A stretch of DNA of 64,000 nt from Octopus vulgaris (Eukaryota): NCBI GenBank assembly GCA_951406725.2, contig OX597842.1:12214001-12278000 (forward strand). Reading direction: 5' to 3'. This document shows positions 15,337 through 20,599 of the stretch, in pieces; the first letter of the stretch is position 1; the number at the start of each line of letters is the position of its first letter. The translations under genes and the position numbers were made by a program. The notes beneath the pieces are model-generated. The model saw nothing but the letters and a program-made list of their open reading frames with translations, did no database searches and was not told the origin of the DNA.

Positions 15337-15515
15337 GTACATATGTCTATATCTATGTATGCACTTATATATATATATATATCTTTTGTGGTATATATAT
15401 ATTTTTATATATATACACAGTTATATATATAGCGATGTGTATGTGTATATATATATACATATATATATACATATGTATATATGTATGTATGCACTTATAT
15501 ATATATAAATATAAT

Positions 15516-15565
<50 letters not shown>

Positions 15566-15643
15566 TTGTATATATATATACATATATATATATACACAGT
15601 TAAATATATACAGGTATGTGTATGCACACACACGCATACACAA

Positions 15644-15692
<49 letters not shown>

Positions 15693-15695
15693 GCT
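14240..15695. repeat. (CTAT)n/(GATA)n/(TA)n microsatellite field
   Basis: Directly visible; CTAT tract 14270-14495 faces GATA tract 14563-14628. Confidence 0.9.
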
Positions 15696-16578
15696 AATAA
15701 TGTGGGATTATTCATCCAAGCAAATTACTAGGCTAACAGTGTTGTGTAGATTATTGAACAACTCCAGATATTCTTATGGCCAGGTCGAACGTTACGGTTC
15801 ATTGCAATTCTGTATTGTAAGTCCGTGGATGGGCTCCAGACAAACTGGTTTTTACACAGATTAATATGTAGAACAAGTTTAAAACTTCGTAAATGTTTCA
15901 TGTGCTTCGCGTTTAAGGTCCGAAAACAGCTCCTGGCTTCTGGCAGAAATGTTCCTACTGCGACGAAAACTAACAAGCAATTCCCGACGGTTAGACATGC
16001 CCAGAAAATGTCTACTTTACCCAGAAAGTCCAGGGGATGTTACACGAGAATCCTGGGGCGTCTGAAGGCGGTCACTGACAACCATCTCAATGTTTCCGCG
16101 CTAACGATTTACGTATGGTGCGCAAATGCACGAATTCATCAGGTATAAAACCTATCTTAGAAGAGAGTTGCTCATGTCTGATAAAACACAGGAGACCCAT
16201 GTGATACAGCTGAAGCTCTAACGGAACAAGCTCAAGTCCCGACAAGTCCGGACATGTTCTGATCCTTCTTAGATGAGAAGTTTTTCCAAGAAAAGGGGGA
16301 ATTACAGATGGCCCTTCACTAGCCCCAATGAAGTCCCCACTGTTATGTAAACCAAGTTCTTTTCATCTATGAAGGTTTTGATGGCTCTAAGCAATAAGGA
16401 CCTTGTTACACCTACTCAATTCTCCCCTCAAGGTTTTAGGGTCGTTGTGGCAACCTACATCCAGACAATGGAAGTCTAGGTCTGTGATGGTCAAACCTTG
16501 AATCGAGGAAATTACTGGAGGGCCGTACGTGTTTTAGCAAGACCCTACTTCCTTTCACACATCCTGCACAACCCAGCA

Positions 16579-17176
16579 TAGGATCGCGGTTTCGATTCCC
16601 AGACCGGGCGTTGTGAGTGTTTATTGAGCGAAAACACCTAAAAGCTCCACGAGGCTCCGGCAGGGGATGGTGGTGATCCCTGCTGTACTCTTTCACCACA
16701 ACTTTCTCTCATTCTTACTTCCTGTTTCTGTTGTACCTGTATTTCAAGGGGCCGGCCTTGTCACTCTCTGTGTCACGCTGAATATCACCGAGAACTACGT
16801 TAAGGGTACACGTGTCTGTGGAGTGGTCAGCCACTTACACGTTAATTTCATGAGCAGGCTGTTCCGTTGATTCGGATCAACCGGAACCCTCGTCGTCGTA
16901 ACCAACGGAGTGCTCCGGCAGTGGATGGTGGTGATCCCTGCTGTACTCTTTCACCACAACTTTCTCTCACTCTTACTTCCTGTTTCTGTTGTACCTGTAT
17001 TTCAAGGGGCCGGCCTTGTCACTCTCTGTGTCACGCTGAATATACCCGTGAACTACGTTAAGGGTGCACGTGTCTGTGGAGTGCTCAGCCACTTACTCGT
17101 TAATTTCACGAGCAGGCTGTTCCGTTGATTCGGATCAACCGGAACCCTCATCGTCGTAACCGACGGAGTGCTTCCA
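16579..17176 (+). mobile_element. SINE family C partial tandem dimer
   Basis: B-box GTTTCGATTCCCAGACC; body repeated, junction at ~16911 through GCTCC microhomology. Confidence 0.9.
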
Positions 17177-17533
17177 TCCATCCATCCATATTTGGGGTGT
17201 CGTTGCAGGGGGAACAAGAAATGATGCCCACAAAAACAATGATTCATCAAATCTGTTAAGGGGACCTTATGGCCATCATGAATGAAAATCCGCCAATCAA
17301 CGCATTTCGTCGTTTCAGAAGCGGTTTCGAGGCAGTAATTAAGAGGCAGTAATTAAGCAGTTTTATTAATTAACGTTTTGTTGCGTATGTAAGAATATGT
17401 GTACGAAATTCTATAAAGATATATAGATTTTCTAATAAATATTTTAACTTAACAATTGCAGCGTGGAAGGTGCTTGTAAGCCATTTAAGAAACACACAAA
17501 AACCGTTCGATTCACTTCAATATTTAAGTTTAA

Positions 17534-17584
17534 TTTGTCAAAATATTTTCGTCGCTTTAAGACCGCGACCTGTTCACTGACAAA
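17534..17584 (-). ncRNA. Hammerhead motif with G3:C8 core variant
   Basis: TTTGTCA-GTGAACA-G-GTCGC-ggtcttaaa-GCGAC-GAAA-ATATTT-TGACAAA. Confidence 0.75.
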
Positions 17585-17725
17585 AATCCGTGCTGCATCT
17601 GAAGAAAGTAACAGTTAGTTCGTCATAATTATGTATATATACATAAAGTAACAGTTAATTCGTCATATATATGTATACATACATATGACGAACTAACTGT
17701 TAGTTTCTCAGATGCAGCACGGATT

Positions 17726-17775
17726 TTTGTCAGTGAACAGGTTGCGGATTTTAGCGACGAAAATATTTTGACAAA
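17726..17775 (+). ncRNA. Hammerhead motif with G3:C8 core variant (second arm)
   Basis: TTTGTCA-GTGAACA-G-GTTGC-ggatttta-GCGAC-GAAA-ATATTT-TGACAAA; the stem II change is a tolerated U-G wobble. Confidence 0.75.
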
Positions 17776-18224
17776 TTAAACTTAAATGTTGATGTGAATC
17801 GAACGGCTTTTGTGTGTTTCTTAAATGGCTTACAAACACCTTCCACACTGCAATTGTTTTCGTTCTAGCACACGATCTCAGATCAAATCACTTGCTATGC
17901 AAGTATTTCTCCGTAATACTTTAATTTAACTTAGTCAAATATATTTATTAGAAATAAGTTTATTAGAAAAACCAATAATTTTTATTTTTTTGTTGCAGAA
18001 TTACGTTTTGCAAAAGAAAGTCGATTAAGAGTCGATTAAACGTCTCCCAGTATATCACTGGTACTCATTCGATCGTACTGACGTCTCAAAACGGAAATGC
18101 AAAGCAGCAAAATCTTTCTTCTGTGTTGTCACGATTGTTTTTTAAAATTCGGTTAGAATCGACTTCGTAACGTAGAGGGGTCAGAAGCTCCTCTTTCTCT
18201 TCTATTTCTTCAGATATGAACGGT

Positions 18225-19200
18225 GGAGGCACAATGGCCCAGTGGTTAGGGCAGCGGACACGCGGTCGTAGGATCGCGGGTTCGATTCCCAGACCGGGCA
18301 TTGTGAGTGTTTATTGAGCGAAAACACCTAAAGCTTCACGAGGCTCCTGCAGGGGATGGTGGTGAACCCTGCTGTACTCTTTAACCACAACTTTCTCGCA
18401 CTCTTACTTTCTGTTTCTCTTGTACCTGTATTTCAAAGGGCCAGCCTTTGTCACACTCTGTGTCACGCTGAATCTCCTCGAGAACTACGTTAAGGGTGCA
18501 CGTGTCTGTGGAGTGCTCAGCCACTTACACGTTAATTTCACGAGCAGACTGTTCCGTTGATCGGATCAACCGGAACCCTCGTCGTCGTAACCGACGGAGT
18601 GCTTCCATATTGAGGGAAAACACCTAAAGCTTCACGAGGCTCCTGCAGGGGATGGTGGTGAACCCTGCTGTACTCTTTCACCACAACTCCTCTCACACTT
18701 ACTTCCTGTTTCTGTTGTACCTGTATTTCAATGGGCCAGCCTTTGTCACACTCTGTGTCACGCTGAATCTCCTCGAGAACTACATTAAGGGTGCACGTGT
18801 CTGCGGAGTGCTCAGCCACTTACACGCTAATTTCACGAGCAGACTGTTCCGTTGATCGGATCAACCGGAACCCTCGTCGTCGTAACTGACGGAGTGCTTC
18901 CATATTGAGCGAAAACACCTAAAGCTTCACGAGGCTCCTGCAGGGGGTGGTGGTGAACCCTGCTGTACTCTTTCACCACAACTTTCTCTCACTCTTTCTT
19001 CCTGTTTCTGTTGTACCTGTATTTCAAAGGGCCGGCCTTGTCACTCTCTGTGTCACGCTGAATCTCCTCGAGAACTACGTTAAGGGTGCACGTGTCTGTG
19101 GAGTGCTCAGCCACTTGCATGTTACGTTAATTCCACGAGCAAGCTGTTCCGTTTATCGGATCATCTGGGACCTTCATCGTCGTAACCGACGGAGTGCTCC
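18225..19200 (+). mobile_element. SINE family C tandem trimer
   Basis: Full head GGAGGCACAATGGCCCAGTGGTTAGG...GGTTCGATTCCC; ~295-bp body repeated with junctions at ~18608 and ~18903. Confidence 0.9.
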
Positions 19201-19214
19201 TTTTTTTAGATATG

Positions 19215-19400
19215 AATGATCTATATCATCTGCGAAGTCCATGTCTGTGAAGGTTACTGCTGGTACTCTCCGTGATCTTTGCTGGCCAATGGTGAACGCA
19301 AGCTTTTCGTCACTGCTGTCCATTGCATAATCCAATGGAATTGCAAACAGGTAAGGGGCAAGCGTGTCTCCTTGTAGCACACCATCAAGTATTTGAAAGA
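19215..19400 (-). pseudogene. RTE-like LINE reverse transcriptase fragment
   Basis: GVLQGDTLAPYLF...LDYAM...DMDFADDI (RT motifs B' and C). Confidence 0.85.
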
Positions 19401-19725
19401 GTCCTGGAGGTTAGGATTGGCCGTAAGGGTGAAATAGCAGCAACATATGACGAGCGAATGCCATTATGGAAATTTGCCGAAAGTTAGCGAGAAGATCGGG
19501 TGAAGACAGCTGCGACTCTCTGGTCACTGCATGCTCCAGCCTGGACTGGAAGCGTCCGAATTAGTCGTGTGGAACTCACTTCACGGTGATGAAAGAAGAA
19601 GAAAACGTCATCACAATTACATCGATCGCAGACACTGACCGGGAATGTAGCCAGGACCTCCTGGTCAGTTCATCATATTAAATGTGGCGGATGGATTTTG
19701 TTTCTGCGGCCAGGGTTGGAACCCG

Positions 19726-19955
19726 GGCGAGCTGGCATAGTCGTTAGCACGCCGGGCGAAATTCTTAGCGGTATTTCGTCTGCCGCTACGTTCTGAGTTC
19801 AAATTCCGCCGAGGTCGACTTTGCCTTTCATCCTTTCGGGGTCGATTAAATAAGTACCAGTTACGCACTGGGTGTTTATGTAATCGACTCAATCCGTTTG
19901 TCTGTCCTTGTTTGTCCCCTCTGTGTTTAGCCTCTTGTGGGTAGTAAAGAAATAG
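19726..19955 (+). mobile_element. SINE family B monomer
   Basis: GGCGAGCTGGCATAGTCGTTAG...GAGTTCAAATTCC...Meta-like core...GTAAAGAAATAG. Confidence 0.9.
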
Positions 19956-20599
19956 ATAATGGCATATATCTCTTCTCCCTCATCACTGCTACTTGATCTC
20001 TCAGCTCATGTACATAGTTTTGTCATCGAGGATTTCTACCGGGAAACGAATCCCTTGGTTTCTTTATCATGATGTAGACTCACATCTTCCCGCGATACAA
20101 AATACTCCGTTCCTTTCCATCGGCTTTCACGTTACGTACAAACCAACGAACATCAGCATCAGTTCAATAGGAAATGAAATCCATTTTGCATTTCCGAATT
20201 CCTCATTACGGAACCTGGCAATAAGGATCAACCGCGTTCTGGATTCACGTTGCGAAATTATATCTCGCGTTACGTTGCCTTCCGTTACGGAGTTCCTCTT
20301 TACTGTATAATTTTCATCTTGCTTATTTCTCCGTAATTTTGACCTTTGTGACTTGGGGCCCCAGTGTATGAGGCGATCCCTTTTATCTCTACTCCTGTCA
20401 TCATCGGAACCGTTATTAGTGCAGTTACAAAAACCGTGACAGTGGCAGAGACAACGATAGCTATGGGCTTCGCCACAAGTCCCTGCTCTATCTATTGTTT
20501 CTGTTGCTTTTGTCTCCGGTTTTTGTGCTGCCGTTTCCCTTGTATTTTTAAAAATTTCATTATCATTATTTCCTCCACGACTGTGTAATTAATAAGCCA

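Follow-up and report, generated by a model that had tools for sequence, protein, structure and literature searches.

A candidate hammerhead motif with a G3:C8 core in a very common Penelope-like element of Octopus vulgaris

What is the origin of a fold-back whose two arms each appear to encode a hammerhead motif with an altered core, and could such a motif still cleave? The question is raised by a 64-kb stretch of Octopus vulgaris DNA (hereafter, the window), in which nucleotides 17451-17625 and 17686-17858 form an inverted repeat of 175 and 173 nt with 93% identity. A preliminary description, made from the sequence alone, had proposed that each arm of this repeat carries a full type I hammerhead layout in which C3 and G8 are both replaced, G3 now facing C8. 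The layout was indeed recovered in both arms, and the locus can be described as follows.

17451..17625, minus strand: left arm, an inverted, 5'-truncated copy, without a tail, of the pLTR of a Penelope-like element (PLE), belonging to the subfamily with a 9-nt loop II
17534..17584, minus strand: left hammerhead-type motif, with G3 at 17577, C8 at 17572 and the predicted cut after U17 at 17541
17605..17685, strand-neutral: centre, made of a 40-bp tandem duplication and TA/CA-rich sequence
17686..17858, plus strand: right arm, a pLTR of the PLE called family A here, of the subfamily with an 8-nt loop II
17726..17775, plus strand: right hammerhead-type motif, with G3 at 17733, C8 at 17738 and the predicted cut between 17768 and 17769
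17726-17732 and 17769-17775, plus strand: stem I of the right motif, 7 bp
17733-17739, plus strand: core GUGAACA of the right motif, followed by an extra G at 17740
17741-17745 and 17754-17758, plus strand: stem II of the right motif, 5 bp
17759-17761, 17762-17767 and 17768, plus strand: GAA, the palindrome AAUAUU and U17 of the right motif
17825..17917, plus strand: start of the PLE ORF, 31 codons, inside the pLTR; the same stretch runs on into an RT-EN ORF in loci L152, L153 and L161
17859..17918, plus strand: tail, on the right arm only; this stretch separates the family's two favoured 3' ends

The left motif, read on the minus strand from 17584 to 17534, has the same layout as the right one. 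As had been noted at the outset, the two differ only in loop II (8 versus 9 nt) and at one C/U position in stem II; the U is private to the right arm of the window, and stem II is fully Watson-Crick in most copies. A type I descriptor, written after the motif was known and accepting any Watson-Crick pair at 3:8, has exactly two matches in the window, the two arm motifs, and none in 60 block-shuffled windows. Folding predicts the pairs of stem II with a probability of 0.99-1.0 and six of the seven pairs of stem I with 0.87-1.0, the outermost pair having a probability of 0.4; stem III is not formed in folds of the monomer.

All the core residues outside positions 3 and 8 are those of a hammerhead (U4 G5 A6, A9, G12 A13 A14 A15.1, U16.1 and H17). 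The motif departs from the CUGANGA consensus by having G3 and C8, which form a Watson-Crick 3:8 pair, and a search for CUGANGA would, as had been anticipated, miss this family. The 3:8 pair is known from the active conformation of the hammerhead only. Przybilski and Hammann are said to have found, in 2007, that any Watson-Crick pair at 3:8 is tolerated in some ribozymes. The motif also shows the hallmarks of the minimal hammerheads (min-HHRs) of PLEs, namely one additional residue separating position 9 from 10.1, a G10.1-C11.1 pair and a palindromic 15.1-16.1 segment. Both motifs are almost certainly homologs of hammerheads and, as far as sequence can tell, each represents the minimal type I hammerhead of a PLE, in which positions 3 and 8 have undergone a compensatory, probably derived, swap. 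Rfam, searched over the window region, did not match any hammerhead even with E values as high as 10; it was also silent on relatives that have a canonical C3:G8 core (loci L105 and L107, see below), so that the miss reflects the minimal layout and not the swap. The miRNA matches reported by Rfam were hairpin or microsatellite noise below the gathering score, and a miRNA precursor was rejected.

The arm repeat is present in high copy number: 2,500 candidates were retrieved, and the 40 that were scored are mostly 96-98% identical. Upstream of it come a microsatellite-rich UTR, then a GIY-YIG endonuclease (EN), then a reverse transcriptase (RT). Locus L070 has a stop-free frame of 1,025 residues with RT motifs and, at its C terminus, a GIY-YIG EN in a single ORF. 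Pfam recognized GIY-YIG with E values of 4.6e-4 and 2.1e-4 (20.9 and 21.9 bits, not reaching the curated cut-off of 22.6) and RVT_1 on a sister family with an E value of 1.4e-4 (22 bits, below the curated cut-off of 29.6); 122 homologs were found. In L152, L153 and L161 the pLTR repeat continues, in sense orientation, into the beginning of the ORF, at the equivalent of window position 17825; in L201 an inverted truncated copy precedes a pLTR-ORF-pLTR unit whose two motifs are identical, in direct orientation and spaced by 4,261 nt. The features of a C-terminal EN+ PLE were found together: an ORF coding for RT and then GIY-YIG, direct pLTRs, and an inverted 5'-truncated copy with an optional tail. 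Such pLTR, inverted truncated copy and tail structures have been described for PLEs (PMC8557442, PMC11167929).

In the fold-back, two terminal pieces of this very common PLE stand head to head, an ordinary architecture for such elements: a pLTR with its tail and an inverted 5'-truncated pLTR, in the usual arrangement of inverted copy and tail. The two arms belong to different loop II subfamilies. An adjacent inverted arm was found in 17 of 30 position-ordered loci, three pairs of which are the two arms of one insertion. In 247 of 275 copies the 3' end falls at one of two preferred sites (99 and 148 copies), which lie about 55-60 nt from each other; because copies end at these two sites, the right arm alone extends to about 17918. 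Direct reading showed (TA)n or AT-rich DNA in the flanks of most of the 30 loci, in keeping with a bias of insertion to such DNA. The centre, 17605-17685, is likely a remnant of the microsatellite-rich 3' UTR of the element, of a (TA)n target, or of both. About 16-20 nt are common to the AT-rich flanks of the fold-back, 17425-17450 and 17925-17970, where they run in opposite orientations; target DNA may have been duplicated there in inverted form. Further out, on both sides of the element (16579-17172 and 18229-19198), lies a repeat with a head that looks tRNA-like by eye, followed by tandem units of 258 and 295 bp; this repeat is likely a SINE, and ARAGORN called no tRNA in 15500-20500.

Among known elements, family A resembles the C-terminal EN+ PLEs Nematis and Neptune (Craig 2021, PMC8557442) in its single RT-GIY-YIG ORF with a CX3CXXC Zn-finger-like linker, in the two Cys between the equivalents of GIY and YIG, and in its inverted 5'-truncated copies, tail and (TA)n targets. 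It differs from them in a long, microsatellite-rich 3' UTR, of which about 1 kb precedes the motif, and in a tail of about 55-60 nt versus the 30-40 bp described (PMC8557442). By eye, its short linker looks like those shown for Nematis in Fig. S2 of PMC8557442; the tree mentioned below was built without reference sequences. Naiad was ruled out, the EN being C-terminal in family A. Nematis is a tentative label for family A, based on this comparison by eye and on sequence motifs. A non-LTR retrozyme, in which every unit of a non-coding tandem repeat has a type I hammerhead, was also ruled out, since the unit here belongs to a coding PLE and the copy in the window is inverted, not tandem. Loci L162 and L163 (G000:C28) consist of head-to-tail arrays of short family A pLTR units of about 170-190 bp, which would place several sense motifs on one transcript, as in retrozymes.

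How general is the G3:C8 core? In counts of exact 19-nt matches over the genome, G3:C8 was found in 6,459 of 7,054 matches (91.6%), the others having G3 with another residue at position 8 (386) or another residue at position 3 (209). Where the site was covered, 123 distinct copies picked by similarity had G3 in 108 of 108 cases and C8 in 110 of 110. No C3:G8 copy with the stem II of family A was found in the genome (none among the first 100 matches listed in the searches for another residue at position 3 and for G8). In these copies the changes shared by subfamilies fall in loop II or in the flanks, and both stems are kept. In contigs from four sequencing runs, the variants lie in loop II, in the flanks, at CpG sites and at stem positions where wobble pairing is kept, and none is listed at 1541-1561 of L003. 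Judging from these copies, G3:C8 is the compensatory state of the whole family, which bears out the proposal of a joint C3-to-G and G8-to-C change.

Searches for G8 together with G3 or C3 gave 223 matches, and all of the first 100 listed were mismatched G3·G8. As a control, a C-to-G change in stem I was seen in 13 of the first 100 listed of 134 matches, or about 17 in all; the approximately 223 G3·G8 copies thus represent a roughly 13-fold excess over the control transversion, part of which may stem from local arrays. G3 was changed to C in 7 of the first 100 listed of the 209 matches with another residue at position 3. Of the three possible changes of C8, the one in excess is that to the canonical G (for example in L186 and L236-L261). 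The G3·G8 copies are mostly of the old type (22/25 versus 14/25), amount to 3% of copies and are absent, in the sample, from the youngest group, that with an 8-nt loop II. They do not form one clade (10 changes, at least 3 of them forced in a rough bootstrap), and their divergence is 0.036 versus 0.034 for old-type G3:C8 copies (p = 0.49). Since they are no more diverged than old-type copies and not one clade, the reading of G3·G8 as an ancestral intermediate is no more than a possibility, next to that of a derived loss. In 3 of the 8 G3·G8 insertions in which both arms cover the site, G8 is present on both arms, which argues that mismatched templates have likely transposed.

The origin of the swap was approached by comparing nine 3' UTRs: those of family A, of its sister family B in the same genome, and of seven out of ten metagenome loci, the three omitted stopping short of the ORF end. 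The proteins of A and B are 55-57% identical, and that of B is 91% identical to an NCBI protein named Octopus vulgaris; no related locus was found in the genome-contig or viral-contig collections. A descriptor allowing 3:8 covariation, an approach already advocated in the preliminary description, was run on the window, where it found the two sites mentioned above, and on the nine 3' UTRs, six of which have one sense-strand site, none an antisense site, with 0 of 300 shuffles matching for each. The motif sits at the same place in these six relatives. When positions 3, 8 and 9 were left free, the same six sites were recovered, all with a Watson-Crick 3:8 pair: G:C in A, C:G in B, L105 and L107, and U:A in L106 and L108; the descriptors were fitted to known motifs, and a formal test of covariation would need more than six sequences. 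The stems of the six sites are unrelated; all six have G10.1:C11.1 and the extra G, and five have U17. Position 9 is a C in two relatives (B and L106). The identification of the motif as a PLE hammerhead, made at the outset, thus finds support both in the junction of the pLTR with an RT and GIY-YIG ORF and in these homologous motifs.

L109 and L110, whose 3' ends look incomplete or chimeric, have no site. L111 has no descriptor match, its core being further changed: at L111:2350-2395, a G5-to-A core is found with a very short stem II, a 7-bp stem I and a perfect palindrome. Other departures are U15.1:A16.1 at L105:4965-5025 and U3:A8 together with C9 at L106:2490-2545. Families A and B are sisters (support 100/99), and since B has C3:G8, the G3:C8 pair was likely derived on the lineage of family A, if these few sequences are a guide. 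Family B (L115:5377-6177; also L075-L104) is a second, young PLE whose frames, about 1,310 residues long, are intact; the hammerhead of this family has C3:G8, C9, a stem I of 3 bp plus a bulge and an imperfect palindrome, and comes in C17 and U17 subfamilies. A type I hammerhead with a canonical core and an 8-nt palindromic stem III was also seen in another repeat family (L037, about 445-490).

Much of this layout has been published. Min-HHRs were defined by the extra nucleotide between 9 and 10.1, G10.1-C11.1 and the palindromic stem III, and cleave weakly as dimers (Cervera and de la Pena 2014, PMC4209133). The motifs of family A are like them in their position in the pLTR and in each of these three features, as well as in their frequent U17 and in their occurrence as opposite-strand pairs, which were described there at distances of 100-700 bp. 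The UUU cleavage-site triplet had been called unusual in the preliminary description; the triplet is indeed UUU, but the adjective is not borne out: by our own count, U17 is present in 24 of 56 motifs in Fig. S3 of PMC4209133, among them a UUU triplet in Crassostrea gigas, and in five of the six motifs of the present clade. The same count gave C3 in 53 motifs, U3 in 3 and G3 in none. Family A differs from these min-HHRs in its G3:C8 pair, in its extra nucleotide, a G (1 of 56 in PMC4209133), and in its longer, 7-bp stem I. Natural U3:A8 covariants are also known, from Perreault 2011 (PMC3088659) and from the Cercyon PLE of S. mansoni (PMC4209133). Like family A, these are natural compensatory changes at 3:8, of the kind seen here in L106 and L108; they keep a pyrimidine at 3 and a purine at 8, whereas family A reverses this polarity and places a C at the general-acid nucleotide. 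Thus min-HHRs in pLTRs, opposite-strand pairs, frequent U17 and natural U3:A8 are all already in print.

The C3G/G8C double change itself has been engineered, with partial rescue of cleavage (reviewed in PMC8495972), including in the PAc hammerhead, which comes from a PLE and requires the PLE protein for cleavage (PMC11167929). The core pair is the same as in family A, but these are laboratory mutants, while family A has about 6,500 genomic copies, known from their sequence. We found no natural G3:C8 in the literature covered, although other hammerhead papers may list one; the parts consulted of PMC6765202, PMC6155905, PMC12192606 and bioRxiv 10.64898/2026.07.22.740005 contained nothing relevant. 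The family A motif is likely a naturally occurring version of what is otherwise a laboratory variant.

Does the motif cleave? The reading that we prefer, to which we give a probability of about 0.6, is that the locus is an insertion of a pLTR with an inverted truncated pLTR, each motif being a G3:C8 min-HHR that probably still cleaves weakly, as a dimer or helped by a protein. Taken by itself, the claim that the family A motif cleaves to a measurable extent seems to us rather probable. In a transcript of a tandem pLTR-ORF-pLTR, two sense motifs would pair through the 6-nt palindrome and so form stem III, and a cut after U17 would release a unit-length RNA of about 4.26 kb; the partner would come from tandem direct copies, as in L201, or act in trans. 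Cleavage would probably be slow or late, since most insertions were copied from RNA that was intact across the cut site. The copy in the window would be a passive product, its motifs facing outward on opposite strands and being predicted not to act together.

Several observations bear on how strong such cleavage could be. Among 146 incidental copies, from loci gathered around motif-bearing copies and hence a biased sample, there is no peak of 5' ends at the predicted cut site: 4 of 146 start within 3 nt of it, and 32 start about 55-60 nt upstream. A cluster of 5' ends of short copies matches 17706-17716 of the window; it may mark transcription start from a pLTR promoter or an RT stop, and either would account for the abundance of solo copies about 150-200 bp long. 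In the predicted folds, G3 pairs with residue 17 with a probability of 0.67 when it is U, 0.98 when it is C and 0 when it is A, and the G3·U17 pair extends stem I; an analogous C3-G17 trap has been discussed (PMC3884650). The energy model gives no gain on dimerization (-27.2 kcal/mol for the dimer fold versus -26.6 for two monomers). The excess of G3·G8 copies, the lack of 5' ends at the cut site and the G3·U17 pair provide some evidence for weak or dispensable cleavage.

These same three observations would be expected if the motif descended from a once-active hammerhead and no longer cleaved to any meaningful extent in family A, its fold being retained in the pLTR for a structural or protein-binding role, or simply through inertia in a small number of source elements. 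The other departures in relatives, C9 in two and U15.1:A16.1 in one, go in the same direction, as do the low in vitro activity of min-HHRs (PMC4209133) and the finding that hammerhead mutants had no effect on insertion in vitro (PMC11167929). The small share of G3·G8 copies and their absence from the youngest group sampled nevertheless speak against this reading. So do the retention in A of all the remaining core positions, although the stems wholly differ from those of B, and the fact that a pair known from the active conformation only is re-formed by the swap. We consider such a loss of cleavage unlikely.

The preliminary description had treated the motifs of the two arms as a pair, and one could imagine that they cooperate as a dimeric ribozyme encoded by the locus, both being intact with a common palindrome and fold-back copies being common. 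This is very improbable: the motifs are on opposite strands, so that one transcript cannot dimerize them, and an RNA spanning the whole fold-back is predicted to form a long hairpin in which each motif pairs with the opposite arm; the loop II types differ; and to cooperate, the motifs would have to be transcribed divergently from the centre and then pair in trans. That the locus is a MITE or fold-back DNA transposon, with the motif a chance look-alike in its terminal inverted repeats, as its long inverted repeat, high copy number and lack of an ORF in the window copy might suggest, can be dismissed, given the sense junction of the pLTR with the RT ORF, the variable truncation and inner ends among copies, the many solo copies and the homologous motifs at the same place in related PLEs.

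A bolder version of weak cleavage by a G3:C8 min-HHR, which we put forward only tentatively, would make family A an active natural G3:C8 hammerhead, the first core of reversed polarity fixed at thousands of copies, in a PLE clade that explores its core freely (C3:G8, U3:A8, G3:C8, C9, U15.1:A16.1). The excess of G3·G8 in older subfamilies might then be a fossil of a path from C3:G8 through G3·G8 to G3:C8, and U17 might have been kept because C17 would trap G3 in a Watson-Crick pair.

If the family A motif cleaves, as in the reading we prefer, G3:C8 would be a third natural state of the tertiary 3:8 pair of the hammerhead, and CUGANGA and UUGANAA descriptors would undercount PLE ribozymes. The clade offers a natural series for gauging how far the core can drift. 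Thousands of copies that span the cut site intact, together with mismatched cores that appear to have transposed, fit a cleavage that is late, weak or unneeded for insertion, and family A thereby bears on the question of what PLE hammerheads do.
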